From Reclinomonas americana ATCC 50394 (taxonomy: Eukaryota): DNA of 36,522 nucleotides. Below, piece after piece: positions 1-31,884 of this stretch (position 1 is the first letter of the stretch; the number at the start of each line of letters is the position of its first letter). Made by a program: the position numbers and the translations under genes. The stretch covers positions 94,118-130,639 of the forward strand of contig PS015070.1 of NCBI GenBank assembly GCA_048213135.1. Reading direction: 5' to 3'. The notes under the pieces were generated by a model, which worked only from the letters and a program-made list of their open reading frames with translations, did no database searches and was not told the origin of the DNA.

Positions 1-977
1 GAAGACAAAGGAAATGGAGAAGAAGAAAAAGAAGAAGAAGAACAAGCAGAAGAAGGACCAAGAAGTAGAAAAAGGAGGTTGTGGTGGACGCACCAAAACT
101 TGAACCGATAGGCCTGCACATCCGTGGCCACCGAATCGTCCTTGGCGGCCGTGCTCATCAACGTGGTAGCGCGACTGCCTCGCACACGATTGACGGTGAG
201 CGACGAGTTGGGATTGTGATGCACCGAGCCACGATGCGTGGCACGCGATCGCATCGGTGCCGCCGAGGACGAAGTCGTGTCGCGATGCGCTCCCACTGCA
301 TTCATCATGGTCGACGCAGCCGTGGCCACAGTGGAGTTATCCGAGGTCACCTCGTTCACTTGGTAGCCCTCCAGAGGCACTGTGCCCTGTGATACCTCCT
401 TGCTCTGCAGCAAGAGTGAGTGAGTTGCAGAGGAGTTATCTCTCTTTTCTCTTTGCTCTCAACTTGTGATTTGAAGTAGGTTAGTCGCCCGTGCACGAGC
501 ACGAAGTAGCGGCGTTTCCAGGCGCGTCGCACACGGCCCTTCTTGGTCAACCACCCTTCCAGATGCTGAGAGGCACACATTGGATGAGTTGATCAAATGT
601 GTGAGGGAGGGATGAGAGAGAGAGCGTGCGCACGTGTGTGTGTGTGTGTGCGTGCATGCGTGCGTGCGTGCGTGTGCGTGTGAGTGTTTGTTACGCACTG
701 GCGCGCCCATTTTCTCATACAATCGTCTCCGCAGCTTCTCTGCGGCCACATCGTCGACTTTCCCGCGTGATGTTCCATCACTGCGCTCACTTGCTGGCTC
801 GCCCGACACAAACGAGCTCTGCGTGTGTGTGCACGCACCAGAGAAAGAGTCAGACACCAATCTTTGAGTGTGAGAGTGAGAGCAAGTGCGAGTGCGTACC
901 ATACTGTGCATGCTGTCGGCGGCATAGGCGGAACCCGACACCGAGTACAGCGTGCCGGATCGTTCACGGTCAGTCAT
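1..977 (-). CDS. PH-domain protein, 5' part (spliced; continues beyond window start)
   Basis: Spliced translation MTDRERSG...MHSM|SSFVSG...MGAP|HLEGWLTKKGRVRRAWKRRYFVLVHGRLTYFKSQ|SKEVSQGTVPLEGYQV...YRFKF. The GWLxKKG..WKRRYFVL..LxYFK motif is the PH-domain N-terminal signature. GT-AG introns were traced; the last donor is at 93. The ATG at 977 is tentative. Confidence 0.8.
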
Positions 978-1075
978 GGCTTTGTCGAAGAGACGCACGT
1001 GGATCACAAACAAGGACACTGTGAAGGACACTGCATACACAAGATTAGTTTTGCATTAATGTAGTCGCTCTCTGC

Positions 1076-4000
1076 TCAGTCCTCCTTCCTCTCGAGCTCC
1101 GGGTCCGTGTCGACAAGTTCCACGACTCGCGATCGCCGTCTCCTCGCGGCTGGAATTGATGCGGGCGACGTTGGCGATGCCAGTGCTGGTGGCGGCAGTG
1201 GAGGAGGAGGAGCCGGTCCGGGTCCAGCCAGTGGGAGTACATGTTCGGGCATCGCTGCTCGAATGGATGGCAGTTGTGGGCGGAAGCGACGATCTGCTCC
1301 GGTGGGAGCTGTCATGCGTTCCGACGTGACGCGTCGCGCGACGTTGGCGTCGGGCGACATTGGCGTCGTGTTGGCGACGGCAGCTGCTGCAGCAGCGGCG
1401 GTGGTGCCATCAGCAAACGGCGATGCGGCATTGCCAGCAACGCCTGGTGAAGGGGTCTCGAGGCCGCCGTTGACCGTGTTGCGCCGTCGGTGACGAAGAA
1501 TGCCATCGCCGCCACCACCAGTACCTGAGGATGAAGAGGACTCTGGGGGTGGCGACAAGCACTGCAATTCCTCTTCGCCCACTGGCGGAGTGGCCGACTG
1601 TGGAGGCGTGGCCACTTGCAGCATGCGCATGCGAGTCACTGCCGCCAAGAATGTCGACGTCTCGTTTTGTGTACTTGCTGTCGGGCCGAGGCCGAAGCGC
1701 AGCTGGAGACGAGTTGAGGCCTGTTGCATCAACTTGCGTCGCTGTTCACGACGCATCCAACCGCGCACTGCCTCCTGCAGCCTCAACGCCGCCAACAGTT
1801 CCGCCACTTGCACCTTTTGCGGACGACGGCGCTTCCTTCGTCGTCGATCACCGCCGTCCAAATGTCCATCATCGTCGTCGTGGCCGCCGTTCTTGTCATC
1901 ATCGTCGTCGTCATTGTAATCATTGTCGTCACTGGGCGGATCGTCGAAATCGTCCTCTTCCTCGTTGTTGCCACCTGCTTGATCACCGTTCGCCTTCTTC
2001 TCGTGCTTTCGTTTCTGCCGCCGCGAGCGGTCGTCGAAAGCCGTGGGGAAGCGCGATGACCACTGTTCCATGATGCTGTGCTTGATTCCCGGCGGCAGTG
2101 CTCTGCGGTGGGAAAGAGTGGGTAAGCAACACGATCGTGTACACAAAAAGACATTCGCTTATACGCAACTTGGCTTCCACTTCGCACGCGCGTGCGGTGA
2201 GGGCCGGCAAAACGTCGCGGTAGTGCGCTGTGCCACTCCAGTCGTAGATCTCGACCTCGGCCAAGTATCTCAAGGCACGGGCGCGCGTGGCATCCCTTCC
2301 CACACCCAGTGGTGGATCGACTTGCTGCAGAATGGTCGGAAGTGCAGTCTGCAATACGTGACTCACGTTTAGCAAATTACGCGACATTGTCGAGAGACAA
2401 CATTGGCGAGGACAAACCACTGGCACATAACCCGTGCTCTCCGGGTCGTGATGTGCCCACGCATCCAGGAATCTGCGACAGCCGTGGAGTGAGATTGTGC
2501 ACCTAACAGTAGTTGCTGGCAGGAGCCATCATGCGCAACTGCTGAATGTTGTCGTCGGAGACGGCCTCCTCTTCGTCCTTGAGCGATAGCGTCGAAAGGT
2601 TTTCCAGCATGACCTGCGGTGTGGTGGCAACAGTGAGCGAAAGCCAGAGAGAAAAGGCATTCTTGTTTCCAGTGCAGAAACGCACCGCGATGAACAAGTT
2701 GAGCATCACAAACGTGACGAGGAACACAAACATCGAAAAGTAGACGGAAGTCAGAACTGTCACGCAGTTGGTGCTGTCGGCCGGGCAGGCTGTGCGGCGA
2801 AGAGTCACACGGTGAGAAGCAGAAATCATCCCACACGCCTCCACGCAGCCGATGGTACGCACGAAAGTATGGATGGCTGAGCTCCTCCATGACGTAAGGC
2901 CAGCTTTCGCCAGTCGAGGCGCGCAGGAGCAGACGGAGTGCGTTGGGAAAGTTCTGGAAGTTGGCGTGCCGATTGTAGAGAATGCCGAGCGGCACATCCG
3001 CAAACAGGTTGACTCCCACGACGGCAAACACGAAGAAGAGGAGTGCCAGAATCGAGCCAATGTTGGCAAGCGACGGCAGCGACAGGTACATGGTGTGGAT
3101 CTGCCGCTGCACACCCCGCAAATTGCGGAACAGTCGCATCACCCGGAACACACGGAAGATGCGGAACACTGTCGAGCCGACCCCGACACTCACATACAGG
3201 CCTGGTACAAGGCGTCAGAAAGAGCACCACATGCTTTGCAGTCGGCCACACGCACTCACCAATGACCGACACGATGCACACCAAAAAGTCAAACACATTC
3301 CATCCGCTCTTGAAGTACCGTCGCAGTCCGTTGCCGTACACCTTGATGCAGGCCTCGGCGACAAACACCCACGTGACCACCTGTGTATGGTCGACAAGGC
3401 GGCGATGAGAGGAATGTAAGAGCGGGGTACTTGTGAGTTCAGCCACGCACTTGTTCCAGCAAGTCAAACACATCGGTCATGGCCTTGGGCATGTCGCGGT
3501 ACACCAACACCATGCTCAGCACGTTGACGACAATCACAGCCATGAGGGCGTAATCAAAGGGTCGCGAGGCGGCGATGTCGTAGGCCAGCATGCGTGATTT
3601 GCCGAAGAATGTTGGTGCGTACGTCGGTGGAGCGGGCACCGGGCTCTCCGATAGGAGACGGCGTTGAGCAGCTGCAGCAAACACAGAAGAGAGTTTAACA
3701 CCCTGCAAGTCATGACACACTCTATTCTGTCCTGCTGCTGAGCTCACGCACCGACCCAGCGCTGCTGCTCCGGAGTGAGGAATACAGCGGCACCCTCCGA
3801 CTGCTGCTTGCGCTTGTAGTAGTTGTCGATGAGGACGCCGATAAACCTGTATGCACAACAACACAACGCGAGTTGAGTACGAATTCCACAGCCATGAATG
3901 AGCGCAACTTGCTGCTGCTGCACACGCACATGTTGAGGGTCAGGTACACGCCAATGACGATAAAGCCGACAAAGTAGAGCGCCTGCCATGGATTGCTGCC

Positions 4001-7000
4001 GCGAACAGGTTGCATGTCCACCTGTTCGAGAAAGAAACTTCAGAAACAAAAGAAACAAGTATGGCAGGAATCGGCAACGGCGACGCACCCCCACAGAATC
4101 GCGCCCCTTATTCATAATGTCCACCCATCCCTCGGTGGTGGAAATCTCAAAGAGCACTCGCATGGCGTTGACAAAATTGTCAAAGTTGGTCGCCGGCACG
4201 GTCCAGTCGCGGTCGCTGAGGTTGCCCGAGTCGTCAAAGTACTGACCGACGCAGTCGGCCTTTCTGTCAACACCTGTTGATAAAATCGTTGTGAGCAATG
4301 GCAGCGCGTGTGACAATGAACTGAGAGCGCGCAACTGGAGTCGTTGCAGGAGCCGAATGTACCGGCGTACAGTTGCACGCCGAGAATGCCGTACACCACC
4401 CACAGGAGCGACACCACCAACACGACGTTGACCATTGGAGGAATGGCACGGAATAGTGCGTCGACCACAATCTGTGCAGGTGCACCGTCGGATGAGCCAG
4501 TCGTCGGTTCGCGCAGAAAAAAAACTTGTGTGTGTGCGGTAGCTCATACCTTGAGACTGCGGATCCGATTGACAAAGCGGAGTGGCCGAATGGCACGAAT
4601 GATGCGAATCATACCGATCCACGAGATTGTGTGATTGTACAGTACCACACCAACAACAGAGGCCTGGTGGACGCCATGTTAGCCAACGGGAGGAGAATGC
4701 TCAAGATACATGCGCGTCACGAACCACCACGATGACAAAGTCGAAAATGTTCCACAAGGAGCGCATGTAGGCATTCTTGTGAAAGATGACTCCGTACGCC
4801 ACCCACTTGCACAGCATTTCCGCCACGAACCCCGCCGTGATGATGGTATTCATCGAGTACACCACCAGCCACATGGTCGTGTTCACCGGCTCGTTCGGAT
4901 GCTCAATGGCCAGTACCGCGCACGACCATCCGATCAACAACAAGACACTCCACTCAAACGCGCGATGCTCTACAATCACTGATCTCGGAAATGGATGATT
5001 TAGTCTGGCTGTCGGTACATGGAGGGGAAGGCGAGGAGCACACATGTAACTCACCGCGCATACGTTGAACCAGTCGCGACGAGTCGGGCAGAATGCACAT
5101 GGGCCACGACCGCGAAGGCAGTCTGCGCCACCAACTCTGTGCTACCTTCTGCTCGCCGCCATCCGCGGTTGCAGGTTGAGGTGCTTGCGTTTTTGTTTCG
5201 TCGCCGTTCTGCTGAGGTTCACCACCGACGGGTGCGTTTGTCCGTGTTGGTGACTGCAAGTCGTCGACACTATGGGAGTAGTCGATTATTGGGTCAGCCG
5301 CAAGCAGATGAGCTACCTACACTGGAAATTCTTCTTCCAAGTCACTCACCTGACTAGCACAGAGACGCCGCGCACGTGGTGCGGCCTGGTCTTCTTTCCC
5401 GTTGCCTCAATGTCTGATGGGCGGTGAGTCAGGTTTTGCAGAATAATTTAGAGAGCCAACAGAACACACCAACGTCTACGGCCAGCGCTAAATCATCAGC
5501 ATCGTCAGCTTCCGTCTCCTTTTCTGGCTTATCATCGTCGTCGCCAAAGGAAAAGTGTTGCAGCAGAATGGCGATGAAGAGGTTCAACAGAATATCTGAG
5601 GCTCAAGAGAGTGAGCGAAACACAAGAGCGGTGTGTAGCGTGGAGTGGCACGCAACAATTGCCGATGACAAGCACGAAAACAAAGTAGACGGCAGCCCAG
5701 TCACCGGTTCCGGCCATGCAATCCCACAGCACATTGACCCAGTTCTCCAAGGTAAGAACCTATTAATGTGTGTGAGCCTCACCGTGTCGAGTGAAGAAAC
5801 AATGAATGATAAGCCCAAGCACCTGGAAGATCGTGAGCATGGCCTGCAAAGCAGAAAAAGTCAGTGAAAATGAAAGAAGGGCAGGAGGATTGATCTCGAG
5901 TGTCTCGCGCACCTGGAAAAATGTGTCAAAGTTGGAGCGTGGAATCGGGTCATCATCGTCGGGGAAGTACAGTTTGCCACCAAAGAGTTGCATGCCGAGC
6001 AGAGCCGACACAAAAATGAAGAGCACCAGCAGAAGCATCAATGTGGAGACGCCTTGAATGCTCTCGCGCAGCATGCGGAGCACGCGTCGCAGAGAGTCCC
6101 ACGATCTGCATGGCACGCCGAGGTGAGTGGAGGGCGGAATGGAAGAGAAAGGCCATGTGCAACGCAACCTGGCCAGCTTGAACACGCGAAGCAAGCGCAG
6201 CGAACGCAGTGCCGTGAGGCCCGTTGAACCGGGTGTGTAGGCGTCGACAAAGCCGAGCGTCACAATGATGAAGTCGAAAATGTTGAAGACCACCGTGAAA
6301 TACTTGCATGGAGTCTGTGCGTACAGCAGCAGCACCATCTCCGAGGCGAAAAAATACAACAGCACCAGGTTGATCAGATCTGCAGGGCAGGGCCAGGGAA
6401 GGTCAATACTCACATGAATACACCAAAATAAAAAACCACTCTCAGGCCACTCGGACGACGCACCGCAAACATCGCTCATTGTCTTGGACATGCCGTAGTA
6501 CTGAATTCCGAGAATGATGGTGTTGAAGACAATGACAGCGGCCATAATGCCCTGCCACACACTCGTCTGGGAGATACGCATCAACCAGAGCCGCGAGCGC
6601 AGCAGCAATGTGCGGAAGACGCCGGTCGCTGTGGCGGCCGAGGGGGCCGCTTTGATATTGTTCTCCAGCTCCTGCATGAAAATGACCTCCTTGGCCACCT
6701 CGGGCTCCGGCGCCATGGAGCCGCGTCGACCACGGGCATGCTCGGCGGCCTGCGGAGAGCCTGTGGAGTGGTCCCACCCGTCGTCGTCCTCGTTTGGGTC
6801 GATGAATGATCCACGACGCCCGTTGACTTTGCCCAAGGACTGAGCCAGCATGCTGCCGAATGCTCGCTGTCCACCAAAGACGCCGCCGCCGCCGCCGCCC
6901 ACAAACGACCGAGCTGGAGCCGGACGCACCAGTAGGCCACTGACAGAGGCCGACATTGTGGGCGGATCTCCGAGCTTGTACGGCTGTGCTCCTTCCACAG

Positions 7001-10000
7001 TCTCCACTCCTGTTCCCACACCTGCTGCTGCTGGCGCTGCTGCTGCTGCTGAATCACCCACCGTCGACAAACGCCGCAGCACCGAAACGCTTGGTCGATT
7101 CTCGTCGCCATCCTCGCTGCCGTCGTCGTCAGCATTCTCGGCATCCGAGTTCTCGCCAGAATATGGCGACGACGACGCCGACGACGACTCTGTCGAGGAA
7201 CCACTGCTCTCCTCCAGCGAGCCGTCGCATACCACAAGACTCGGTCGGTGCTCGGTGAACTTCCACTTCGCCATGGCCTTGTGCACCTCAATGCCCGACT
7301 CGGCATTGATGACCATGGATGAGCCAGCCACCGTGTTAATGTCGGCGCCCATCTTGGAGAGCTCCAGCGTGGCGGCGCTATCCGTCTTGGCACGCTCCTT
7401 GGAGACCTTCATGAAGGTCTCGGTGATGATGACGATGATGAGGTTGGCCAGGAACCAGGCGCCGAAGAACACCATTGGAATAAAGTACCAGACGGCTTGG
7501 GCGTTGTAGGCGTCCATGGTTGCCGATAGAATGTCGGTCCAGCTCTCCATTGTTACACCCTGCACATGAGCAGAAGGGTTATATAATCAGCAGGGGCCTA
7601 GTGCATATTTGATGTGTGTACATGCTCACCGACATGACACACAGCGCTGCCGAGGCGATATTGTCGAAGCTGGTCTTGCCGCGATTCGGATTGTTGCCGC
7701 CGACCATGCACACTAGACCGTCGGGGCACTGTAGGCCGCCGTTGAAGGAGCAACCGTCCGTGGCGACCGTGCTCTGCGTCATCGTGCCGTCGTCGGCCAC
7801 CTCGAAGCACCGCTGCGAGAGTGTGCCCTTGTAGAGCTGCACGCCGACCACCGAGAACACGAGAAAGTAGACGAAGAAGAGCAGCAGGGTGTCGGCCAGC
7901 GCCGGCAGGGTGCGGAGAATGGTGGTGACGAGCATTTGCATTTCGCGGAGATTGGAGATGGCGCGCAGCGGACGCAGGAGACGCAGCGCACGCACGCCGC
8001 TCACGTTGGAGCCGACGAAGATGTTGAGGTAGCTGTGGAGCAGGGAAAGGGGGGAGAATGAGAGAAGGGAAGGGAGAGAGGGAAGAGAGGGAAGGAGAAG
8101 AAGGGAGGGAAGGGAGGAGGAGGAGGAGGAGGAGGAGGAGGAGGAGGAGGAGGAGGAGGAGGAGGAGGAGGAGGAGNNNNNNNNNNNNNNNNNNNNAAGG
8201 GAGGGAAGGGAGGGAAGAGAGTGAAGAGAGTGAAGAGAGTGAAGAGAGTGAAGAGAGAGAAGAGAGTAAAGAGAGGGGAGGGAGGGAACGGAAAGCCGTA
8301 AAGGGGCTGGAAGAAAAAGGAGCGAATCGAAAGATGAGAGAAAATCTCGATGCGACAAACAGCGAAGAAGGGAAGAACGAAGCAAAAACGAGAGAAGCAC
8401 ATGGAGAAGTAGGGCCACGAGGTCAAGAAGCAGAAGGGGATGGGGGGCGGAGAGAGAAGCAGACATGATGTAGATGGGCACGACATGGGACCTAGAGGAA
8501 GGGGAGCTTGGAACGAAACGAAAATGAGAGAGACATCATGCGACAATGACAACAAGGGCACAGGAAGACAGAAAAGAGACGGAAGATCTGCAAGAGAACA
8601 ATGAATGCAAGAGATGCAAAGAGTGTGGGCAGCGATAGAGTGCACGAGACGAGAAAGAAAGGGACTTGGAAGCTGACACTGTTATCAGAGGACTGAGGTG
8701 CTGACAACGCGCTTCCTCTCTCTCTTTCCTGGTATGTTTGCGTGTGTGCGCATGTGTGTCTGTCTGACTGCTTGTGCGACTATCATTCTACCTCTGATTC
8801 TCTCGTTATCTCTGCTTCTCTCTCTTTCCTCATTGTACTCTTCTTCACGCAGCGCACCTTCCTGCCACGACGATAAAGTCGAGCCAGTTCCATCCCGATT
8901 TGAAGTATCCCACAAACCCCAATCCAATCCACTTGCACATCATTTCCACAGTGAAGATGGCAGTGAAGCCGTAGTCGACAAAGTTGAGGTAGTAATTGCG
9001 TCCCTCCTCCGGCCCGGTCAGCGGGTCAAACATAGCCAATGCGATACTGTTCAGTAATACCACGACCAGGATGGTGGTCTCAAAGGCTCTGCAGATGAGG
9101 AAGAGAGAGAAAGAGAGAAGAGTGAGTGAGAGAGAACGGATCATGGAGCAAACAAATCGAGACACCACACAGCAATCACCTGTGATTGATCATGTCGTAC
9201 ATGAAGCGATGCAGGATCTGCCAGCAACTCAACCGCACAGAGGGGATGCCATTGTAGGGACGAGCCACCCGGCACTCCTTCTCGATACGCTTGAGCCGCT
9301 CCAGCTCCGCCAGCGACGTGTTGACCGGTACGAGGGACTGCACAAAATTGACGGCGGCACGACGAATGAAAGAGCCGCGTCGCCTTGGCACCTTGTGCAG
9401 GACTGCACCGCTAGTCGACACATCGCCTCCTTCCACGTCGGCAGCCGCCACCACGCTCGCCCTCCGCCCGCCACCATTGCCCAACAAATCCGGAACACCG
9501 TCACCGCCCGCAAACGACACCAGCGTGCTCCGTCGCCGACCCGGCAGGTTCGGCAACGCAAATCGCAAGTGCTGCTGCAAGTGCTGATGAGCCTCGCCCT
9601 CTAATGGTGGTGGCAGCAGTGGAGGTGGTGGTGGTGGCGAGGGAGAGGGGGCCAGCAGTGCTCTGGTTATTGGTGACGCTGTGAGACCGCTGTCGTGGCC
9701 GTCGCCCACCACAATGCTGGGATTGTCATTGATGGTTCTCTGTTGGGGAGTGGACGGGATGCGGCGAAAGTGTGGTCGCGCGGGTGACTCGGTAGACGGC
9801 GGTCGAGGCACCGGCTGTGTGGAAAGGTGAGAGGTGAGAGTCGGAAAGAGGGTGATTGATTGAATGCAACGTGCACTGGAGGGGAGAAGACGACAAGTCG
9901 CGCACATATGAAGAACAAGCAACAATGCGCAGGGAGCAAGAGTTGCACGTACATACAGATACTGAGAGAAGGAGACGGGAAGAGAGAGAGGGAGAGCGAC

Positions 10001-10060
10001 CATGTGCGTTTGCGTAAACACCCTCTTGGGACTCACCGCACATTCCCCAGTGTCGCTCAT
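1076..10060 (-). CDS. Four-domain voltage-gated cation channel alpha subunit (Cav/Nav superfamily, EEEE filter), about 26 introns
   Basis: Four S1-S6 repeats with Arg-rich S4 segments (VRALRLLRPLRAI; LRSLRLLRVFKLAR; IRIIRAIRPLRFVNR; FRIFRVFRVMRLFR). Pore loops are TMESW, TLENW, TTEGW and TGESW. The C-terminus has an EF-hand-like region (FLDAWAHHDPESTGYV...VDPPLGVG) and an IQ-like motif (LRLQEAVRGWMRR). Stop TGA at 1076-1078. The start codon and first small exons are uncertain. Confidence 0.93.
8114..8270. repeat. (GAG)n and GAAGAGAGT microsatellites inside a channel intron, with a small gap
   Basis: Trinucleotide run at 8114-8176 and 9-mer tandem copies at about 8214-8260, both directly visible. 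Confidence 0.9.
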
Positions 10061-14984: not shown

Positions 14985-15032
<48 letters not shown>

Positions 15033-18300: not shown

Positions 18301-18829
18301 TAGTCAGTGAGTTGTGGAACTTGTGTGTGTGTGAGTGTGTGTATGTGTGTGTGTGAGAGAGAGAGAGGAGGGAGAGAGAGAAGAGAAGGAAGAGAGAGCG
18401 TGTTGTGCACAAGTCTCTCACTCCACACACACAGTCATGACATCGTGTCCAGTTTCTCAGTCTCTCTCTCTCTCTCACACACACACACTCACACACACAC
18501 ACTCACACACACACACTCACACACTCACTCACTCACTCACATGACATCACGTCCAATTTCAGTCACTCTCCTTTCCCTCCCTTCTCCCTTCTCTCTCCTT
18601 CTCCCCTTCTTTGCCTCTCTCCCTCTCCACACACTCAACTCAATTGCGTGACATTGCGATGCGTGTCGGGATCCAACGAGGCAAAGCGCGCACTCTCCGC
18701 CACGCGCTCCTCCACCTCCATATCCAACACCGCAAACTTGCGACTCACACTGTCACCATGCGCACTGACACTCACAACAGCAGCACAGAGGACCAACAAC
18801 AACAAGAGAGGAAGAGTGGCGCGCCCCAT
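15384..18829 (-). CDS. Secreted or lysosomal acid lipase (LIPA/gastric-lipase family alpha/beta hydrolase), 13 introns
   Basis: Signal peptide [23 protein letters not shown]. Family motifs [37 protein letters not shown], nucleophile GHSQG (17571-17585), [22 protein letters not shown], catalytic Asp (SADTLGD) and His (WGHMTFIW). All 13 introns can be joined in frame. Confidence 0.95.
18310..18545. repeat. (GT)n/(GA)n/(CA)n microsatellite cluster in lipase intron 1
   Basis: Directly visible dinucleotide tracts. Confidence 0.9.
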
Positions 18830-20216
18830 GATGGTGGCAAGACAAACAAGACGGAGACGCGAGCTCGTCATTGTCTGACTTGACGACATTGGCTGGAGCC
18901 TCGCAGCTGCTGTGTGAGTGCAAGGCGATGAGCTCCGCAATGAGGGCATTCTACAGAGGGGAGACGCATTGCATGCATGCACAGACGAGCAGTGGGAATT
19001 CGAAAGGCGAGCTCGAGGAGTCTGATCAGAATTCGAACACCATGGCCAGCGAGTGAGAGAACTCTTGCTCGCACACTAGGCACACTCCGTGTTGTCATCG
19101 AGTGCACAGAGAGAGCGGTTCCCTGGAACCTGCAGCTTGGTGCTGGCTTTTCGTGGTGTGTTCGGTTTGCGTTTCTCGGTCACTTTTTATCTCCTACACT
19201 TTATTTTGATTACAGTGCGCCGGGCCTTAAGAGACATCGCACGCGCATGTGATGTGCTTGTGGTGGCCAACCGGGTGGCGGACGAGGTAACGGTCATAAT
19301 TATAAGGTTTGGATTCGCGTTTGGCGAAAAGCCACGCTAGCGCGCTTTGCATGGTTGTGAATGTGCACCTTCTCCCAGAAAAGGTAAATAAAATCATCTC
19401 TCCTCTCTCTGTCAGGGTCCCAGCGCATGCGTGTAGATCACGTGATGCCTCGTAGTCGCGAGTTTCAACCGCAGAGGTTGATGCGTGCGTGTCAGTGATC
19501 ACATGTTGTCTCGATCGCGACGACTGCGCTGGAGTGCTCTCTGCAAAACTCAATCAGCAGTGGCAAGGTCCTTGGTTCATCTCTCTGGAAACGTGTGAGC
19601 CACATCGCGAGGAGGCCTCCCGAGCTCAGGCAACGAGTTGTCCAGAGCGGAGCACCAAATTTGGTGCGCGCATGCGCCTTTCGATTTCTCTGCGAATGCA
19701 CCACACTGCGGAAACAGGAGTTCGTGTTCCACCCGTGTCGACACTGAGTTGGCGTCTCTGCGTTTGTCGCTGCGCTGCGGCCACTGCAGGACGATTGCTT
19801 TGGGAGAAGTGTGGCTATTCACTACAACTGCCTGACAGATTTGTGAGGTACATGCACACGCGCACAACGTAAACGACACCTACGAAAAAAAAAACATTCT
19901 GCAACCTTTCGACGAGACCATTCTTACAAACCTTCGATACATCAGGATCTTGTCGTCGTGCGTACGCGTGTTGCCGATAAATGATGATCAATCACGAATT
20001 CGAACTACTGTACGATCGCGAATCACACCTTCCTCTTTCATGTTTCACTGTCGATGTGTGTGCTTGGGTGTGTGAGGGTGGCGCTTGTCGACATCACGAA
20101 CCACACCACTCGTGTAAACACCCACATGGCCAGTAAGTTCGCGAGTCGGGTATTACAGAAACAACAACTTTACTAATCCAAACACCACTATACGTTCTCG
20201 ATTCGCTGAAACAGCC

Positions 20217-23200
20217 ATGCGATCAGCGCCACGAGTGCGACGAACGAGGGCACACTGCATTGCTGTGCTGCGTCGTGGAATGTCTGTTGTTTTATCGCTG
20301 AGTGAGCTCTGCTCGGGACAAGGTGAAAATTGTCGGTGCCGTTGCAGCGTTTTGTTTGTTGCCCATTTTCTTATTCTGCCCGGGAGAGAGAAAAGAGTGC
20401 GCGGTACCCGTCGAAATATCACGTCTGTTTCTCCTCCACCGTCATGCAGTTAGTGCCGCCTGTTGCGTTCGTGACGCGCTTTGTGAGCGATGTGCACCGA
20501 GACACGTTTCTCTTCTCACCAGTTGCGTGGCGAGTCCGAGATAATGCGCGCCTCAGTTTTTTTGGCGGTATCGTGAACCACTCACCAATCTCCGGCAGAA
20601 CCGCACCGCGGACGCGCTGGCATTCCTCAGCCTTCACCTGACGCTACTCGGCTCAGTGTTCATCAACACCCACTCGGGCATGGCATTCGCGGCCACGCTG
20701 TTGCCAACAACGGTACGCCGCTGGCGTTTCGATTTCCGAACACGCACATTCTGTCATCTTAATTCGTCATACATTGCCTTTTCGCAGATGGAATATTCGA
20801 GACTCACGACAGTCTGGTTGTTTGTGGCCGTTTCTCTGTCGTTGCTGGCGGTGCAGACGGTGCGATTGTATCTCTCGCACCGTGCACAGCACAGCAATGC
20901 TGCTGGAACCGGCTCCACTGACTTGTCCGCCCGCGGCGTCGCGATGACGACCGTCGTCGTCCGTTTCTTGGTGCGTGTGTGTGGAATGGCCATGTCCATG
21001 CCTTGCGCCTCTCCTTTCCTCGAAACCTGTGGTTTCCCGATCATGAGCTGTCCTGTCCTCTCTCCTCGCTGCTGACATGTGCGGAATATTAGTGGGCACT
21101 GGCGACGGGTCCGCTGCTGACGGCCATTGCGCACCTGCTACTGCGACCACTCCACTGTGACTTTAACTCGCTGCAGCACCTCTCTGTGGACTTGATCGAC
21201 ACCCTGTGGAGTTGCGATCTCGTCGGCAATCTGCATGCATGCATTTCTTGTTATCTCATCAACACATCCCCCTCCCTCTCTCTTCGCAGGATGTGACGAT
21301 CCCGTCAACGTGTTTCTCGGGTCCGCCGGCCTTCTTGTCGTCGTCGCACTGTGCATCGTGGCGGTGCTGCTCCCACTTCTGTTGCGCCGTGATGAGTGAG
21401 GGTCTCTCTCTCTCTCGAATCCTCCCGACTCATCACTCTTGATTCGCCACAAGCGCAGCTCATTGGACTTCCACCCAAACTCGCGGCTGTCGACTGCCGG
21501 CTTGCTCAGCGGCCGCTACGTGGCCGCCCTCAATCTTTGCCGCGTTGTGCTGGCCGTCTCGTACACATTCATCGCCAAGGCCGTACCACTGGTGCACTTC
21601 GGGCTGGCCGTCGCCGTGGCACTGGTGTTGGCGATTGGCGTCGCTCGCTACCTGCCGTTCTACTCGATGCTGTCCACCACCAGTGCGTTGTCGCTGTGCT
21701 CGGCAGTGGCCTTGGCCGCCGTCGGCTGCGCGTACGTTTCCGTCTCGGGTGGTGCTGGTCCACTGCGTGAGTGGTGGATGATGCAAGCGGTGATTGTCGG
21801 CGGCAGTGTGGCTGCCGGCATCGTCTTTGGCTTGATCGTCATCTCCCTCCGTCATCGGCATGTGGTTCGCGGTATTGACCAGCTTATTAGCGGCATTGGC
21901 GTCGGTGGCAGTGGCGGTGGCGGCAGCAACACCTTGTCGTCACGGGCCAACAACAGCCTCGCCAGCTTGTCGAGTCCCACTGCCCGCTACTTGGTGCGGT
22001 GTACGTGTTGTCCTCCTCATCCTTTGTGCAACTCACTCACGCTCACAGCGAGGACTGACGTCGGGGAGCCAAGGTGGCGATACAGAAACAAGGGAGGACG
22101 AGGGGTACCTGCACGCCGTGCGGCATGCGTTCCCACGTGTGTGGTCCGTTGAGCTGGCCGCCCGCTTGCCTCCGAGAGATGCCGCAGACCCATGGGGACG
22201 TGCCATGGACCTGTTTGAGATCGGTGAGTGCCACCGTTGTCACCTGTGTGTGTCTTGCGTGCTCACACGTGCGCGCGCGCACGTGCAGGTCACATCCACT
22301 TTGCCGACTGTGTGCATGCCGCTGACACGCTGTCGGTGGTGCACGCCGTGTACATGATGAGTTTTGATGTGGAGCTGGGGCGCTCACAGCAGATGGTGGC
22401 CGAAATCGCAGCGCGCAACGAGGCGACGCCGACGCTCTCGTGGGATATGCGTCGCATAGTGTCGGCGCTTGTATCGTCGTTTGAGCAAAATGTCGATTTC
22501 CGACAGCAGTCGTACCGCGCTCGACTGGCCGCCGTGCATCAGGAGTGGTGCCAGTGCTACGTGTTGCTGATCTCGTTGTGGCGACAAGTGGAGAACGGTG
22601 GCCGTGGTGCGTGAATGATGGCCCCACTCTGATGTTGCAGTCGCGCGGACTCATTGTTTTGTTCCGCACAGAGAGCAAGCTGCTGTCGGTGCTGCTGACG
22701 TTGAAGGAGCAAGAGGACAAGTGCAACAGCCTGTTCCTGTCCATGTTGCGTGACTTTCCAGACGAGGCCGAGCTGGTCATGTGGTACGCACAGGTGCGTG
22801 GAGTTGGTTGTTTGCCATCACTTGGCGTGCAGCACTTTTTCTGAGCTGACGATGCGCAGTTCCTGGTGGAGATCAAGAACGATGAAGTCGGCGGTCGACG
22901 ATACGACGAAGTGGCTGAGTTGCTTGCCACAGTCGACGGCTCCTCGACGGAGAACCGAGAAAAGGAGCGCCACTTTGCACTGGAGGAGATTGCCGCGGTA
23001 AGCTCAGCAGAGAGTGCTCTCTGCTATTCCGACACCGCTGATCAAGCGCGCGCATGTGCAGGAATTGCGCGGCATCATGTTTCTCCGCCATGACATCTCC
23101 GGAGACAGCAACGGCGGTCCATCCGAGTCGGCGTCGTCGTCGCGATCGTCTGCGACGTTGCCTGCGTGGGGTGTCTGCGATGGTGGGCAGCGCGTGCAAA

Positions 23201-26200
23201 ATCGGAACCATGGTACCGCGTCTAACACATGGGGGTGTTGTTGTTGTTGGTGAGCAGACGTAGCCGCGCAATCCGCATCCAATGATTCGAGCTCGGTCCG
23301 CGAAGAGTCAATCGCTTCAGAGACTGATCACCGACAGTCGTCGACGCCGGCACCTGCAGGTGCATCATCATCCACCACATTGCCGACTGGCGTGCGCCTT
23401 TAATTTTCTCATTGCGGTTGTCGCGCAGCAGCTGGTGGAAACGAGGGCGAGCTGCGATCAGCTCTGAAGAGCAAGAAAGACGAAATGCGAACGGTGTCGC
23501 ACGTGTACAATAGCCTCCTTTTGGTTGCTTGCTCACTGTGCGTTGTGTATGAGTAGGACTCTCGCAGTCTGCGCCTCACCTCGCAACGAAAACTCAGTTG
23601 CGCGACAAGCAGTAGCAGAGGAGTATGCATGTTGTCACGCTGACTGTTGCCGTTGCAGACTTTCCGGCACCTGTACAGCCACGAGGTATGCAGATGGCAT
23701 CGGCTGTAGACGATGGAGCCTCGTCTACCGGTGGCAGGTGTGCATGACTACAGTGTGGATTATCATGTGTGTGCGACTGAGGCTGACGACGATGTCTGCG
23801 TGCGCAGCTCGCGTGTCTCCGGTGCCAACTCCAACAAGAGCGGCGTCAGTGTGGACAGCACCGCCTCTGCATCGATTCGTCGCACAATCATTCGCGAAAA
23901 GGTTTGCCAGTGCGCAGCGCGCGCACATGTGTCTGCCCGCCATTGGCCTGACTTTGCGCCTCTCACCATCTCAGAATCCCACAACATACCGAGCATATTC
24001 GATTCTCGCCATGTTCACCGCTGTCTGTGCCGTCGCTGCTGTTGCCATCCTTGTGAGGTCGTCGAGTATGCTTGCATCGATTGTGAATGACCGCACGCTC
24101 GTGACGGATATCGACACTGGCAGGTCTTTCCACCGATATTGCTCCACAACAGGGTCGTACTCATTCGTCGTCTTACGTGGTGCTCTCTGTCTTCACAGTA
24201 ATTGTGCGATTCGCATCGCCGTGACTGCGTGGCGCATGTGGGAGGAGGCGAACGTTGAAGGCGGCGCGAAACTGGTGGATGGTTTACGACCATACATTGC
24301 TGGCAATAGCACCGCAGTTCACAACGCCTTGAGACTCATCTCGCAGCAGTGCGTAACCTCTTGTTGTCTCACACCCACTCACCTCGCCGCGGACACTCAT
24401 AGTTTGTTCTTTTGTAATGCACAGCCACTTTAGCGACCAGTTGGCGATGCGAGTTGCTATTCGGAACATCGAGTACAGCGACACGAGCGGCACTGTGGTG
24501 AATCGATCACTGCCGGGTGGTGATTTTGTGTCATTGTTTCTAGATAGCGCAGCGGTACGTACGTGCATCTGAGTGCGTCCAAGTGCTACTATTGCAACTG
24601 AGGTGTGGGTGCACAGAGCCTCTCTCGCATGTCCACGCGACTGATGACATCGGCTGTTCGTGAGGAGGCGCTGATTACGCTGCTGGCCAATAGCGCCACT
24701 GCTAGCGACGTTCTCTTCCGAGTGGCCAGCGAGTTCAACGACGACGTTGTCAAGTCGACCGCGGAATACTCTGTGGAGGCCTGGTTGGACCTTGCAATTG
24801 TTACTGGGTGCGCAGACATTCAGGCACCGTCGTGAACTTGATCTATCGCGCTGACTATTTCCAATGTGTGTGCAGGCTCTGTGTCGGCGTGCTGTTGGTG
24901 CTATTGCTTCCTGTGGTGATGACCATGCGTCGCAACTTGCGACGCAGCCTCGCCACATTTGCGAGTATACCACGCGACGAGATGCGCAAGATACGTCATC
25001 GTGTGCGTGACTCCTACCTCAACTACCTCAGCATGTCGGACGCGGTACGAAATGTTGCGTGGTCGCACTATTCTTCTCGTCCATGATCTCTATTCCACTG
25101 ACAGCCTTGCGCCGTCTGCAGGGCGTCCACCCGTCCACGACGGTGACGAGCAAATACCTCGCCACTCAGTGTACACGAGCAAATACCTCGCCACTCAGTG
25201 TACACGAGCCGACATGCAGTTCACCGGCAACATCATCTTCCGCGCCGTTGTGCTGGCACTCATTGTTGTCACTGCACTGGCGTGCATGTCGTTGCGCCAC
25301 CACTGTCTCGAAGTCGTTGTAGCCATTCTTATCTCTGACAAATTGGTCTGACATGTTTCGTGCATCGCGCAGAGTAAGCGCCAATGTCGTTGCTCAACAA
25401 AGCGTCGACGGCTTGCAGACGACGGGTCTCGTGGCGGAACGTAACGTCGCTGTGGGAATGGTTGTGATGACAGCTATGCAGTACTTGAATCCCGTCGGCA
25501 TCACTCCTCGAGCGGACGTGCAAGTACGACTGCAGCAACTAATCGCGACGGTACGCGTCGCATGTGAGATGTGTGAAGAAACGGCTGCTGAATATCTGAA
25601 TGCACTGTGTGCACTTGCCAGGCGAAGAAACGACAAGAGGAAGTGACGGAGAGAATCATGGACAAGGGGTGGGATTCGACAGCCGACGCCATGCAAAACA
25701 CGCTGTTGTACTCGACGCGCTGTTCCTCCGCCGCAACGAACCCTACGTGGTGGAAAACGATTCGCTGCGCGCCGATCAGCGACCTTGTGCGTCGATGTCA
25801 TGTCCATTGAGGCGACTGATTTAATCACCAGCTGGTGTCATCTCACTTTTGGTGCAGATTCACTCGATGCTCAGCAGCGCAGAGCAGCTGGCGTCCGAGC
25901 TGAACAGTCCGCCGACGGCAAGCGACAGAGATTTGGAGGAGTTTATCGTGCAATCACGTCCCGCGCTGGCCACTTATTTTGGTGCCAGTCTCCAGGTGTG
26001 GATGGGGGAGTGAGAAAGAAAGAAAGAGACGGTAGATGATGGGTCATCTGAGAATTGCAAAGAGAGAGAGAGAGATCTAGAGCTGAATTGCTTGATCGCT
26101 GCTGACTTTTGCGCACAGGCACTGACTGACGGCCTCGATCGGTCGATCGCCCGCTATACGTTCTTTGCCACTGTGATGTTCACCGTCGGCGTTGTGTCGA

Positions 26201-29200
26201 CCCTCTTCATCTCCGTTGTTCTCTTGGCTCCGCTGCTAAAGGAGACAGACTGTCAGCTGCGGTTCTTCAAGCAATCGCTGCTGCGTGTTCCTGTCTCGGC
26301 AGTGAATGCAGTGGCGGAGCTTCGTCGACAGTTATTGCCTCGTTGCGTCGATCGATCAGTTTGTCATTGCTTCCAGCTTGTGTAGTCTCACCTTGCTCTC
26401 GACTACAGATGCCATGTTGGCGTCGATTGAGATTGGGCGAGTGATGAACGAGAACGAGTACATGTTTCGCGAGATTACCTCCAGTTGCGACACATGTCCT
26501 CAGAAGTTGTTTGAGAGGGTGTGCACGAAGCGATATTCATTTCACAAACGCGCAGGTCGAATTGTGGCACTGGCGAATGAGGCGGTGCGTCCTGCTTTCC
26601 CTCTTGTTGATTCTGCGTTAATGACTGACTGACTGGAGATCTGGAAACAACTTATCTCCAGGGAGTGGTTGAGTTCGTTAACAGAGCCTTCACAAGGTCG
26701 CTGGGATACGTCCCAGATGCCATTGTCGGCAACAGCATCAAGGCATGAACTCCCGGTGTCGTCACTGGTCATGATTGTTTGAGTGTGTGCTGCTCACATG
26801 TCCATCTCGCGCAGGCGATCATGCCTCCCGAACTGCACTCAATGCACGACGGACTATTCTCTCGCTTTGCAGCTCAATCAGCGAAAGACCGCAGCGGCCT
26901 TATGGTCGCCACCAACACCGAGGTACTTGTGCAATTGTTCTCCTCATTGCACAGGCTGTTGAGAGCACCTGACGCAACTTGCACTGCAGGCGTGTCACCG
27001 TGACGGCAGCCGAGTGCCAGTGGCACTCTCTGTGATCGACATGACTGTTAATGGTCGTCACATGTATGGTGTCATGATGGGCGATCGCACGAAAGAATCA
27101 TCAGGTTCCGACACGCTGAGGCTGCACAAGGTGAGCTCTCTCTGTCTTCAACGGAGAAGACATTCAGTGGCACTCACCACGGATCACATCAGGTGTCATC
27201 GGTTACCGAGACGATGCCCGATGCAGTCATTGTGTCGGATGCGAGTGGTACGATACTGCAAGTCAACGGCAGTGCGGTGCACCTCTTTGGATATTCTCGT
27301 GTCGCCGATCTGCAGAATCAGAACATTCGCATGCTGATGCCAGCGCCACATGCGGAGCGACACGATTCGTTGCGTTGCCTGCAGGGGGTGGCAAGGGCAA
27401 GAGGTTGCTGACTCCGATGACGTCCTTGATCACAGGTATATCACCGAGTACTTGCAAGGCAGCAACTCACCCGCTGCAGACGCGGTTATGCAGAAAGCAA
27501 CAACACTGCAGTTGCGTGTATGTCTCCTAGTAAGTATCTCGTTCTCTCTCTCTCTCATCGGGCGTGTTTTGCAGTCCTCGAGACGTGCAGGCGGTGCAAC
27601 GGAACGGCTCGCTGATTGCGATTCGAGTGCACGTGGTAGATGTGCAGATTCGTGACACTCATTACTTTTGTGCAAGCATTCGCAACAATGCCGACGAAGC
27701 ACAACAGCGCGCGACGTTGGAAATGCGCATCGATGAACTGTCCAACATGCTGGGCATGTCGTGCGATGCAGTTGCGTGCAAGGGATGGCTGTGGGGAGTG
27801 GCCGTCATCAGACTCTTCTTGTCTTGTGTGCTTACTGTCGTGCAGATTCTGTGGACCGACAGCGCGGGAGACGTCAAGTGGTGCAACACATTGGTGCCTC
27901 GCCTGCTCGGATACACAATGGAGGAACTGACGCAGCCGCACGGTTTGTGACGGCGATTGAGGAGTTCGTCACTCGCATTGCTCTCACACGGCCGACTGTG
28001 CACAGGTGATGCCGCCCCAGCCAACATCAGTGCACTGCTGCGTCCTCTCACCATTACGGAGGTGCTGCAAGTGGATCCGCACGGCGGGCTAGAAGTGACA
28101 CTGACCCGCAAAGATGGACAGACGTTGCGCTCTCTTTGGCGCTCTCCAATTTGTGTGATGCGAGAGTGATGCTCATTGCTGTCGGGCACAGTGGTGCCTT
28201 TGTGGTACGCGGCACCGAGTGCATCATCGATGGGCAAACGCACATGCTGGTGAGCATTGCCGAGCTCAATCAACAACAACGTGCCATTCTCCAACAAGAC
28301 CAGAGCAATCGCAATCTACATCAGGTTTGCTGTTGTTTTTATTTGCTGATTATGCATTTGTCTCTCTTACTCACGGTTACTGCGGCCAGCTGCTGAGCAT
28401 GTCATTCCCGGAAGCGGCGCTCAACCTTCTGATGGCATCGACTGAAGACAGAGCTCGACGCTTACTGGACAAGGTGTGTGTATGTTATGGAGCCACGAGT
28501 TGGTCCGAAGCTTGTGGCGCACTCACGAACTGTACGTCTCGACGCAGGGGGCAGTGGATGAGCGCGGTCTGGCGCCGACCATGTTCGAGTATCACGAAGA
28601 TGTCACGTGCATATTTGCAAAGGTCGTGGCGGTGGAGCGCGAGGCCGAGGGAGGTGAGTGAGCACCGTTTGAGAAGAGTCGCCGGACAAGTCAATGATTT
28701 GTGTGCGCCGTACAATGATGCAGGCACAATGTGCAACTTGTCGTTGCTGGAAAAGGTGGGGGTGATCCATCGACTGATGAGCAAGTTGGATGCGCTGGTC
28801 AAGCAGCAGCACATTGAGCGGGTGAAGACCATTGGTGAGATGGAAAGAGGACACTGCTGCACCCTCTTTCTGTCAAGACCTCACCACCAACGTGGTGTGT
28901 ATGTGTGAGCGCAGGCTCGGCGTATCTTGCCGTGTCGGGCATGTACGCGCCGCGGCACGATCATGCCGCGGCCGCGGTTGAGTTTGCGCTGTCGGCGAAA
29001 CAGGCGATCGAGGAAGTGAGCGAGAGAGTTGCGTGTACGGTGGAGACGAAGTGAGAGAGACTGGGAGAGGGAAAAGAGGCCTCACGTTTTCTTCGCAGGA
29101 GAACCTGCACATCAAGTTCCGCATTGGTGTGAACACGGGGCCGGTGACCTCGGGCATTGTTGCCGGACTCATCCGCACGTTCGACTTGTATGGCGGTGAG

Positions 29201-29617
29201 TGGGATGAGGCGGAGGAAGAAGGGTGATGGAAGAAACTGACTCCTCATCGGTGGTGTCACAGACTCGGTGAACATGGCGTCGCGAATGGAGAGCTCTGCG
29301 CCACTCGGCAAGATCCAGATCAGTGAGGTAAGTGCGTGCGGCAGATGAGGGAAGGTGGATCTGGAGAGAGCTGACTGGGTGGTCTGCACAGTCGACGCAC
29401 CGGCACACGCGCGGAATGTTTGAAGCTGATACGACAAGTGTGGAGGGTGAGTTTTGTGAGAGTGGAGAGTCGACGGTACGCAGTGTGGTGCTGGTGCTTA
29501 TGAGTGTGGTGCGCAGTCAAGGGCATCGGTATTGTGACGAGCTTTGTGGTCGTAGGCGCCCGCGGTCGTCGCAGTATCACCAGCGACAAATCATCAGGTA
29601 GCGTTGGCTCACTGTAA
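20217..29617 (+). CDS. Multi-pass membrane protein with TmcB/TmcC-like helical region, three PAS domains and a C-terminal class III (adenylyl-type) cyclase domain
   Basis: Hydrophobic TM exons at about 20790-21860, 24000-24060, 24880-25280 and 26150-26240. TmcB-like motifs WSVELAARL and LRDFPDEAELVMWYAQFLVEIKND. PAS1 GVVEFVNRAF...IMPPELHSMHDGLF; PAS2 TMPDAVIVSDASGTILQVN...LMPAPHAERHDSYI; PAS3 ILWTDSAGDVKWCN...LGYTMEEL. Cyclase motifs RVKTIGSAYLAVSG, FRIGVNTGPVTSGIV, FDLYGDSVNMASRMES, KIQISE and VKGIG. Stop TAA at 29615-29617. The 5' boundary is uncertain. Confidence 0.88.
25146..25203 (+). repeat. Exact 29-bp tandem duplication within an apparent coding exon
   Basis: ACGAGCAAATACCTCGCCACTCAGTGTAC at 25146-25174 and 25175-25203. 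Confidence 0.95.
26743..26814 (+). other. GC-AG intron in PAS1 of the cyclase gene
   Basis: The exon ...DAIVGNSIK (AAG) is followed by GCATGA, which contains an in-frame stop. Splicing AAG|GC...GCGCAG|GCG ATC ATG CCT restores the PAS motif IVGNSIK-AIMPPE. Confidence 0.7.
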
Positions 29618-29622
29618 ATAAA
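29617..29622 (+). terminator. Possible polyadenylation signal AATAAA overlapping the cyclase stop codon
   Basis: CTG TAA ATAAATAAC; an AT-rich patch in otherwise GC-rich DNA. Confidence 0.3.
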
Positions 29623-30170
29623 TAACTTCAGTGGGCCTCGCAGAAGAGGGCAACAAAGAGTACGAGTTGCGCATGCTGTCGAAAACAACAAAACACTTCC
29701 TTTCAGATGCGACAAAAATGTCCACAATCCCTTGCCGACAATGACTTTGGCACACCAACAGTGATACAGACACTCTTCTCCAACAGTTATCTTCCCTTTC
29801 AGGGCCAATCGACGTCGATATCAAATTCTCTGTTGGGAAATCAGCTTTCACTTGAAACACCAGCCGTGCAGAGACCGGCAACCCTAGGACAGTGCCTTCA
29901 TTCTTGGACCTCGACACTCGTGAGAAGAGGGGTCGACTTCGCATTCTTGTTGATCTCGACGTCGACGTCGAAGTTCTCTCAGTCACAACGACAATCAAAC
30001 GCCTTCGCTTGTGCTCTCTCACATACAGAGGCGTGACACTACCACACACTTCTGCGTTGTCACAGGGTTTCTGACTGAAAAAGTCCTGTGACACTAATTT
30101 CGCGCGCGTGCACTCACGCTCTCTTCTCCTCTTTGTGTGAGCTTGTGCTCTTCCTCCTCCCTTGTCCACA

Positions 30171-30560
30171 ATGAACCAGTTCCAGATTGTGGAACAAGTC
30201 GGGCAAGGTCTGTGTGTGTGAAGAGCAACAACAACAACTGACATTGTGTGTGTGCGCACTATTTAGTAACTGTGTGTGCTTGTCATTGAGAGAGAGAGAG
30301 GGAGAGAGAGGGAGAGGGAGGGAGGGAGAGAGGGGGAGAGAGTGATTGCTTGTTCATTGAGACTTCAGGGACTGTGTCTGTCTCTCACTCACTCTCTCTC
30401 TCTCACTCTCTCTCTTACTCTGTGAGTGTGTGTCTGGGAGAGAGTGTTGTCACTTGAGTTGCTCATTCTTTGGGATCTCATTGTGTGTGTGTCTGTCTGT
30501 CTGCCTCTGTGTGTGTGTGTGCGCATGTGCGTTTGATAGAGAGTTCGCTCACTCTTCAGA

Positions 30561-30608
<48 letters not shown>

Positions 30609-31884
30609 CTGTGTGAGTTGTCACTCATTCGCGGAGATCCACCAGGCAAATTCTCCACTGTGTACAAGGGCCGCAAGAAGCAAACGATCGAGTATGTCGG
30701 CATTCGCAGTGTGGAGAAGCAGCATCGGAAACGCATTCTCAATGAGGTTTGTCTCTCTCCCACTCTCTCTCCCTCCTCTCTCTCTCTCTCTCATCTCTCC
30801 TTCTTCACTTGCAATCACCCAGGTCGCCCTCCTCCACTCGATGAACCACCGGCACGTGCTCCAGTTCAAGTGCTGGTACGAAACCAACAATCACCTGTGG
30901 CTCATTGTGGAGTTTTGCGCGGCGGGCTCCCTCCACACCATGTTGTCACAAGACGAGCGGTTGCCGGAGAGCACCGTGCAGTTGTTTGCTCAGGATCTGC
31001 TGTGTGGTCTCCAGTTGCGTCTTCTGCGCACGACGCTCTGTCTCTCTTGGTGTGCATGGGCGTGTCCATGGCTCGCCTCCTATCCTGTGTATCCGCATTA
31101 CTCCCTCTCTCTAAACGTGCGCTTGTCTGTGCACTCCCTCCGCTGGTTCTCCTTGCTGCACTCTTCGTGTGTCGCTCTCTCTGTGCGTGCGCATTCCTGT
31201 GTACTCCCTCCGCTGGTCTCCTTCGTGCACTCTTTGTGTGTCGCTCTCTTTGTGCGTGCGTATTCCTGTGTACTCCCTCCGCTGGTTCTCCTTGCTGCAC
31301 TCTTCGTGTGTCGCTCTCTCTGTGCGTGCGCATTCTTGTGTACTCCCTCCGTATTCTCTCCTTCCTTGTTTTCGCACCATCCGCTGTCGTTCACTCTGCG
31401 CGTGCGAATGTGTACTGCCTCCGCAGCTTCTCCTTCCTGCGCTTCTTGCGTTTCGCGTCATTCCCTCTCTTTCGCTCTCACTCATTCTGTGGTGTCTCGT
31501 CCAAGTCCTATGCCCTCTCCCCGCGTCTCACACCTCCTCCCCCTTCACCCCCAGGTACATCCACTCTCAGGGCATCGTCATGTGCGAGTTGAAACCGTCC
31601 AATGTCCTCATCGACGCCAACTCCACTCTTAAGCTGGCCGACTTCCGAGTCGCACAGCGTGTCACTGGCGGCGCCTCCTCCAAATATGTGCGTGGCGGTG
31701 GTGGCAGCAAACTCTTGGTTCTTCAAGCCTAAAGTCTCATCTGTGCCTTTCGTCACAGGACCTAAAACCGCGCCAAGGCACGCCGTGTTACATGTCGCCG
31801 GAGCTGTTCCTCGAGGACGGTGTGCACAGCTTTGCCTCGGATTTTTGGGCTCTCGGATGTGTGCTGTTGCGTGTGCAATTGTAT

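Follow-up and report, generated by a model that had tools for sequence, protein, structure and literature searches.

Genes of the window and placement of their introns

The 36,522-nucleotide (nt) stretch of Reclinomonas americana ATCC 50394 analyzed here (contig PS015070.1 of assembly GCA_048213135.1, positions 94,118 to 130,639 of the forward strand; hereafter the window) is eukaryotic nuclear DNA with a G+C content of about 55% and six N gaps. It carries at least four recognizable intron-rich genes: a four-domain voltage-gated cation channel, an acid-lipase-like gene, a membrane-PAS-PAS-cyclase and, on the plus strand, a ULK4 kinase (Table 1). Our subject is a class of 5′ splice sites, or donors, that recurs in these genes and reads GTTG[C/A]G. 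An initial annotation, made from the letters alone, had listed 20 such sites by position and strand, and all 20 motifs are present (18 GTTGCG and 2 GTTGAG). The nearest channel homologs are about 36% identical and phylogenetically scattered (Fabomonas, Pedinophyceae, Bryopsis, Andalucia and Ostreococcus), the lipase homologs include sequences from Salpingoeca kvevrii and Amoebophrya, and the kinase matches the human ULK4 structure 6u5l at E=1e-16. A metagenome scan brought up no close relative, and its loci do not enter the analysis.

Introns were placed with our own protein-to-DNA spliced aligner, which uses BLOSUM62 and a flat intron penalty and requires only GT..AG, leaving all other donor and acceptor bases unscored. 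We aligned 16 lipase and 62 channel homologs and kept the most-voted non-overlapping introns, 13 in the lipase and 19 in the channel, as a set of 32 homology-supported introns; the 23 of these that lie outside the GTTG[C/A]G class are called regular below. We also wrote a dynamic-programming gene finder, used in variants without donor scoring (donor-agnostic) or with weights for both splice sites fitted to the 32 homology-supported introns (trained). The earliest donor-blind versions took in-frame introns for coding sequence and skipped micro-exons, and they are therefore used for enrichment counts only.

The GTTG[C/A]G donors

The motif-blind alignment selected all nine GTTG[C/A]G donors claimed for the lipase and channel genes, each the top choice at its junction, and so reproduced the earlier counts of 5 in 13 lipase introns and 4 channel introns. 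Of the 30 exons between consecutive selected introns, 29 keep phase and contain no stop; the sole exception is an unconserved channel linker (5595-4725) that must contain more introns. GT..AG, the only boundary that the aligner permits, accounts for all 32 homology-supported junctions. Across the window, GTTG[C/A]G motifs appear to act as intron donors, as homology confirms for 11 of the 20 listed sites. Five more are backed by donor-blind models (27771 also by a weak alignment) and two are probable; the candidate at 31866 is incomplete and that at 463 unsupported.

The class is abundant. It accounts for 9 of the 32 homology-supported introns, or 28% (95% confidence interval 14-47%), so that the earlier estimate of very roughly a fifth errs, if at all, on the low side for the window. 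The initial annotation had proposed a comparison with independent position frequencies, and within the window the class lies far above that expectation, with TGCG filling positions +3 to +6 in 25% of donors against 1.1% expected. The donor-agnostic gene finder placed 11 of 63 donors in the class where 1.1 were expected (p=1e-8). Eight of the nine sense-strand copies of GTTGCG in the lipase and channel genes are donors and the ninth (3908) is intronic; the hexamer is absent from the 4,542 nt of exon in these genes and from the antisense strand of their spans. Taking the sense strand as minus up to position 20,000 and plus beyond, we counted 30 sense and 11 antisense copies in the window. When acceptors are scored by a matrix built from the 23 non-class introns alone, a strong one lies 55-95 nt downstream of 13 of the 30 sense copies, 0 of the 11 antisense copies and 15% of all sense GT dinucleotides. 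The G that regular donors carry at +5 (20 of 23) is found conserved at +6 in the class, as had been proposed, and this displacement, together with the dependence between positions, means that the class is not a by-product of independent position preferences. These observations support GTTG[C/A]G as a real, distinct and abundant donor class in the window.

Several junctions are further delimited by where homology stops and resumes. A gastric lipase alignment ends at ...NMAH, at donor 17072. In the first PAS domain of the cyclase, a FixL heme-PAS alignment (E=9e-11) stops at ...RHDS, the exon end before donor 27369, and the exon after this intron opens with YI, as aligned FixL chains do after RHDS (the Y is visible in the alignment). 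A weak PAS alignment (E=0.15) begins at the exon start ILWTD after the 27771 intron. At 29028, which adds a member to the original 20, positions of the Guanylate_cyc profile continue 95/96 without a gap over the junction, and the rival donor GTGAGC at 29016, 12 nt upstream, would lose four profile positions. The ULK4 alignment (6u5l, E=1e-16) reaches donor 31014, and kinase homology restarts at YIHSQG from 31555. For the two probable sites there are competitors: donor 27511 has a frame-compatible rival at 27518 (GTATGT, to 27590), and in place of 26342 the donor-agnostic model favors the frame-compatible 26324 (GTCGAC) with the same acceptor. Kinase alignments stop at ...LGCVL, at the candidate donor 31866; reading through it (31866-31900, plus strand) gives LRVQLYEC, in which LYE resembles the kinase motif after LGCxL with 4-5 residues inserted; this resemblance may be fortuitous, or the exon may have an alternative end in the (GT)n run.

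In two places a class motif follows a regular donor in frame, 29028 after 29016 on the plus strand (12 nt apart) and 3908 after 3929 on the minus strand (21 nt apart). Pfam continuity favors 29028. Homology favors 3929 by 56 of 62 votes, which places 3908 inside the intron 3929-3847, and we rejected 3908 as a donor. Both pairs could nevertheless serve as alternative 5′ splice sites. The trained gene model alone proposes extra GTTGCG donors at 20522, 25054, 25291 and 2169, and its cyclase model has 12 class donors among 34 introns when such trained-model-only donors are counted. It also predicts a further multi-exon gene piece at 35002-36522 (plus strand), with a GTTGCG donor at 35249 and a 63-nt intron; this piece may be the downstream part of ULK4 past the gaps.

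Table 1. Genes and GTTG[C/A]G-class introns of the window (a slash within a peptide marks the junction).
Feature	Donor	Coordinates	Strand	Length (nt)	Evidence and remarks
Four-domain voltage-gated cation channel gene (conserved part)		2349..9088	-		19 homology-supported introns
Acid-lipase-like gene		15384..18721	-		13 introns; modelled reading frame complete
Membrane-PAS-PAS-cyclase gene model		20444..29617	+		
Channel intron, donor at 6168	GTTGCGTTG	6106..6168	-	63	In frame (FKLA/RSWDSL); 61/62 homologs
Channel intron, donor at 5656	GTTGCGTGC	5596..5656	-	61	Within S6 motif GN/YILLN; 60/62 homologs
Channel intron, donor at 4335	GTTGCGCGC	4274..4335	-	62	30/62 homologs; rivals 4321 (12), 4314 (10)
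Channel intron, donor at 2539	GTTGCGCAT	2473..2539	-	67	46/62 homologs
Lipase intron 1, donor at 18639	GTTGAGTGT	18249..18639	-	391	6/16 homologs; rivals 1 each
Lipase intron, donor at 18036	GTTGCGTGC	17976..18036	-	61	After LQHG micro-exon; 12/16 homologs
Lipase intron, donor at 17309	GTTGCGCGA	17238..17309	-	72	In frame, stop-free; 11/16 homologs
Lipase intron, donor at 17072	GTTGCGTGG	16351..17072	-	722	W codon of conserved HW split; 12/16 homologs
Lipase intron, donor at 15727	GTTGCGTGG	15493..15727	-	235	7/16 homologs; top at its junction
Cyclase membrane-part intron	GTTGCGATC	21211..21289	+	79	Donor-agnostic and trained models; acceptor score 4.9
Cyclase membrane-part intron	GTTGCGCCG	21381..21458	+	78	Donor-agnostic and trained gene models
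Cyclase intron (probable)	GTTGCGTCG	26342..26408	+	67	Trained model only
Cyclase intron	GTTGCGACA	26484..26555	+	72	Donor-agnostic and trained gene models
Cyclase PAS domain 1 intron, donor at 27369	GTTGCGTTG	27369..27435	+	67	FixL alignment and trained gene model
Cyclase PAS domain 1 intron (probable)	GTTGCGTGT	27511..27574	+	64	Trained gene model only
Cyclase intron before PAS domain 2	GTTGCGTGC	27771..27845	+	75	In frame; donor-agnostic gene model
Cyclase PAS domain 2 intron	GTTGCGCTC	28124..28191	+	68	Donor-agnostic and trained gene models
Cyclase catalytic-domain intron	GTTGCGTGT	29028..29098	+	71	Additional class member beyond the 20
ULK4 kinase domain intron	GTTGCGTCT	31014..31554	+	541	Repeat-rich
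ULK4 candidate donor	GTTGCGT	31866..31872	+		Acceptor falls in N gap (from 32168)
Candidate intron, unsupported	GTTGAGAGC	405..463	-		In no gene model; weak acceptor score 0.6

Sequence context and intron type

Regular donors (n=23) have G at -1 in 19, C at +4 in 12, G at +5 in 20 and T at +6 in 19, and at +3 they divide into G13, T6, A3 and C1. The nine class donors are stricter, being near-invariant for TGCG at +3 to +6 (9/9, 9/9, 8/9 and 9/9). They also differ on the exon side, where only 2 of 9 have G at -1 (p=0.0026 against the regular 19 of 23); their -1 bases are A4, G2, T2 and C1. Among the 20 originally listed sites the -1 bases are A10, T4, C4 and G2, and -2 is C in 9. The depletion of G at -1 persists, at 2 of 13 class against 21 of 25 regular donors (p=7e-5), in a set enlarged by class donors 27369, 27771, 29028 and 31014 (from PDB or Pfam alignments) and by regular donors 28835 and 29196 (from Pfam profile continuity).

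G-poor and A-rich, the class -1 position resembles the regular -2 position (G in 2 of 23), and the same holds further into the intron: class +7 (T6/C3) corresponds to regular +6 (T19/C3), and G is found at class +8 in 7 of 9 and at regular +7 in 9 of 23. On both the exon and the intron side, class position k thus resembles regular position k-1. Phase 0 is missing from the class (0 of 9, against 12 of 23 regular introns; p=0.012), as expected if -1 avoids G where codons favor G or C at the third position. Four regular donors have no G at -1, and three of them carry the full GUGCGU, the same kind of compensation as in the class.

The offset class aside, position +3 is unusually relaxed in regular donors. 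Six of the 23 have T there, as GTTTGT (twice), GTTCGT, GTTGGT, GTTATT and GTTGAT/GTTGTT, and are located on the minus strand at 16339, 2417, 4724, 15860, 17470 and 17788/17791.

In other respects the class introns look like their neighbors. Of the 32 homology-supported introns, 27 measure 58-84 nt and 30 end in CAG, and most short introns examined in the gene models have a CTNAY motif in roughly their last 30 nt. By a simple motif count, 17 of 20 short class introns contain CT[ACG]A[CT], which lies 10-31 nt from the 3′ end in 16 of these and 52 nt from it in one, and regular introns are similar. Composition and branch-motif distance are the same in the two groups. Interior sequences have a mean identity of 0.53 among class introns, 0.51 among regular introns and 0.52 in comparisons across the two groups, so that we find no shared interior sequence and reject an introner-like, transposon-derived family. 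U12-type donors have the motif /RTATCCTT; no class donor resembles it, and U12-type introns are likewise rejected. The class introns are thus most readily classified, from their sequence features, as ordinary U2-type GT-AG introns, short, with CAG at the 3′ end and a branch-like CTNAY motif.

Micro-exons of 11, 10, 16 and 21 nt are found at 16340-16350, 15861-15870 and 18037-18052 in the lipase and at 5823-5843 in the channel, all on the minus strand. Without them the two proteins would lose collinearity with their homologs, as at HW-AQL-IRS and GSA-DTLG-DPKDV.

Other features of the window are of separate interest. For PAS domain 1 of the membrane cyclase (27196-27368, plus strand), the closest match is FixL, a heme-binding oxygen sensor of bacteria (E=9e-11), and the joining of a FixL-like PAS domain to a eukaryotic class III cyclase could make this protein a gas-sensing cyclase; a Pfam search with the short PAS exons and a PDB search with the middle PAS exon gave no match. 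The long ULK4 intron (31014-31554, plus strand) consists mostly of tandem copies of a CT/GT-rich unit of about 100 nt. Long (CT)n, (GT)n and (GAGA)n tracts, at 30300-30800, 32000-32167 and elsewhere, stay open as SLSLSL-like frames, and gene finding based on open reading frames is misled as a result. Rfam and transfer RNA scans of the window gave no matches, and no small nuclear RNA (snRNA) was found within it.

How the offset donors may be recognized

We see nearly an even chance that the class donors are read by U1 snRNA in a register shifted one base from the cleavage site. With the cleavage site marked by a slash, the regular donor is (C/A)AG/GUGCGU(G) and the class donor CA/GUUGCGU(G), strings that differ at one base, and the same U1 would pair with both alike. 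The class G+1 would replace the exon G-1, U+3 would replace U+2 and G+6 would replace G+5, and cleavage would occur at the only available GU, one base upstream of its position in a regular site. The near-invariant UGCG at +3 to +6 would follow from the loss of one pair, after which the other intron positions must all match. In this register the bases at -1, -2 and +1 would be A, C and G, to match U1 positions 10, 11 and 9, and -1 would have no need of G; the exon-side bases of the class and its position-by-position likeness to regular donors fit the shift better than they fit a simple bulge. CA/GUUGCGU also has the layout of the human shifted register (accessible text of PMC4856993).

The initial annotation had pointed to a lineage-specific mode of donor recognition, with routine bulged pairing as one form of it. 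The general idea remains reasonable; a plain bulge in the normal register fares less well, and we regard it as rather unlikely. U1 would there pair in its normal register (G+1 with C8) with one U of +2/+3 looped out, so that G+4, C+5 and G+6 replace +3 to +5. In its favor, adding one U to GUGCG gives exactly the class motif, the strict conservation of +4 to +6 fits compensation, the two class sites with G at -1 fold in the canonical register with a standard U1, and experiments in human cells have validated a register with a bulge at +2/+3 (PMC4856993). What weighs against it is the exon side: with a bulge, G should be no less frequent at -1 than it is in regular donors, yet it is seen in 2 of 9 against 19 of 23, and in 2 of 20 in the original list, and a bulge accounts neither for the excess of A at -1 nor for the missing phase 0. 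The register shift that we favor is itself opposed by several observations. RNAduplex with a standard U1 5′ end, which may not be the organism's own, gives weak energies for the class sites (+0.5 to -6.7 kcal/mol) and assigns the nine sites to the shifted register in three cases, the canonical in two and others in four. The C at +5 would be unpaired in the shifted model on standard U1, yet it is C in 8 of 9 sites. Between 9 and 13 sites underlie the -1 and phase statistics, and the junctions are placed by sequence comparison in one 36.5-kb window with five genes.

The strict C at +5 would fit a partner RNA with G at the corresponding position, and this keeps a co-evolved or second U1 in play. 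Such a partner could be a second U1 complementary to GUUGCG(U), or a single altered U1 (for example, ACGCAC) that reads the class offset. We judge it unlikely on present evidence, even though +3 to +6 are near-invariant and stricter than in regular donors, class duplexes with standard U1 are weak, and co-evolved U1 5′ ends have a precedent in Entamoeba and Mastigamoeba (available text of bioRxiv 10.1101/2022.06.08.495308). The same text reports a standard U1 despite atypical donors in a Mamiellales alga and in Thecamonas, and two donor classes within the same genes would need either two snRNAs or one flexible snRNA. Very improbable, in our view, is that the junctions are mis-modelled and GTTGCG is incidental, with true junctions at nearby regular donors or at a GC donor 3 nt downstream (GTT/GCG). 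The in-frame class motifs at 3908 and 29028, just downstream of regular donors, and the frame-compatible rivals of 26342 and 27511 could be read that way, as could the restriction of the aligner to GT..AG. However, the GC donor scores worse than the GT donor at all nine junctions: the GT model is better in 62/62 homologs at 6168, 62/62 at 5656 and 57/62 at 2539, in 42 of 62 at 4335 (12 worse, 8 ties), and in 12-15 of 16 across the lipase (15/16 at 18036, 14/16 at 17309). An invariant exonic GTT across different codon phases is not explicable by coding, GTTGCG is absent from exons, and the homology votes favor the claimed donors.

Known systems offer partial parallels, cited here from the accessible parts of each source. 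In humans, the validated noncanonical registers together make up 1.5% of 201,541 sites, and the +2/+3 bulge register is predicted at 68 of them (PMC4856993, Table 3). The human shifted register, first described by Roca and Krainer as cited in PMC4856993, resembles the arrangement proposed here in having a GU-AG intron and a U1 helix one base off the cleavage site, and the model oligonucleotide ACAGUCAAGUAUA of that study shares the CA/GU... layout with CA/GUUGCGU. It differs in being a small subset of that 1.5%, whereas one stereotyped motif accounts here for about 28% of supported introns, and in having been established by suppressor experiments, whereas the register and the snRNA partner proposed here are inferred from sequence statistics. 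The human bulge likewise has an extra U after GU and a downstream consensus moved by one base; its 68 of 201,541 sites contrast with 9 of 32 here, where the expected exon-side G is depleted.

Among protists, Entamoeba has the donor GUUUGU with U1 ACAAAC, and Mastigamoeba has GUACGU with ACGUAC (bioRxiv 10.1101/2022.06.08.495308). These lineages share with the window a U at +3 and a lineage-specific donor code, and the window also has in-register GTTTGT and GTTCGT donors; they differ in using one homogeneous donor type, whereas two registers would coexist here within single genes. The same preprint describes GYGCGY donors with a standard U1 in Mamiellales (of five genomes searched, that of Micromonas pusilla CCMP1545 yielded the U1) and a C at +4 with a standard U1 in Thecamonas. 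Mamiellales AG/GTGCGT donors (PMC3879977) have the same GTGCG(T/C) as the regular donor here, but a GTTG donor is unmentioned in the available text of that paper ('gttg' occurs 0 times). Micromonas introner elements share interior sequence, unlike the class introns here. A literature search for GTTGCG or GUUGCG in the role of a donor yielded primers and unrelated text and nothing else, and the literature on noncanonical registers and atypical protist donors contained no report of such a class, in a search whose scope excluded most subscription journals and supplementary files.

Tentatively, and as a somewhat improbable extension of these ideas, the organism could possess a two-register splice code in which a quarter to a third of introns are obligatorily displaced by one base, read by an additional U1-like snRNA that serves this class and has an end complementary to GUUGCG, or by one re-tuned U1 to which an offset of one base is routine, while U6/U5 would set the point of cleavage without regard to U1. 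If true, this would be the first genome with a noncanonical U1 register as a major, selected class instead of a rare exception. How many pairing registers there are and how off-register cleavage is fixed have so far been studied on about 1.5% of human sites, according to the accessible text of PMC4856993. A genome in which about a quarter of donors are offset would be a natural system for asking whether U1 binding and cleavage are uncoupled and whether snRNAs co-evolve with a second donor class, and for following how exon-end composition and intron phase adjust to offset donors. In practice, a gene finder trained with one donor matrix would annotate a large share of this organism's exons wrongly, its micro-exons of 10-21 nt included.

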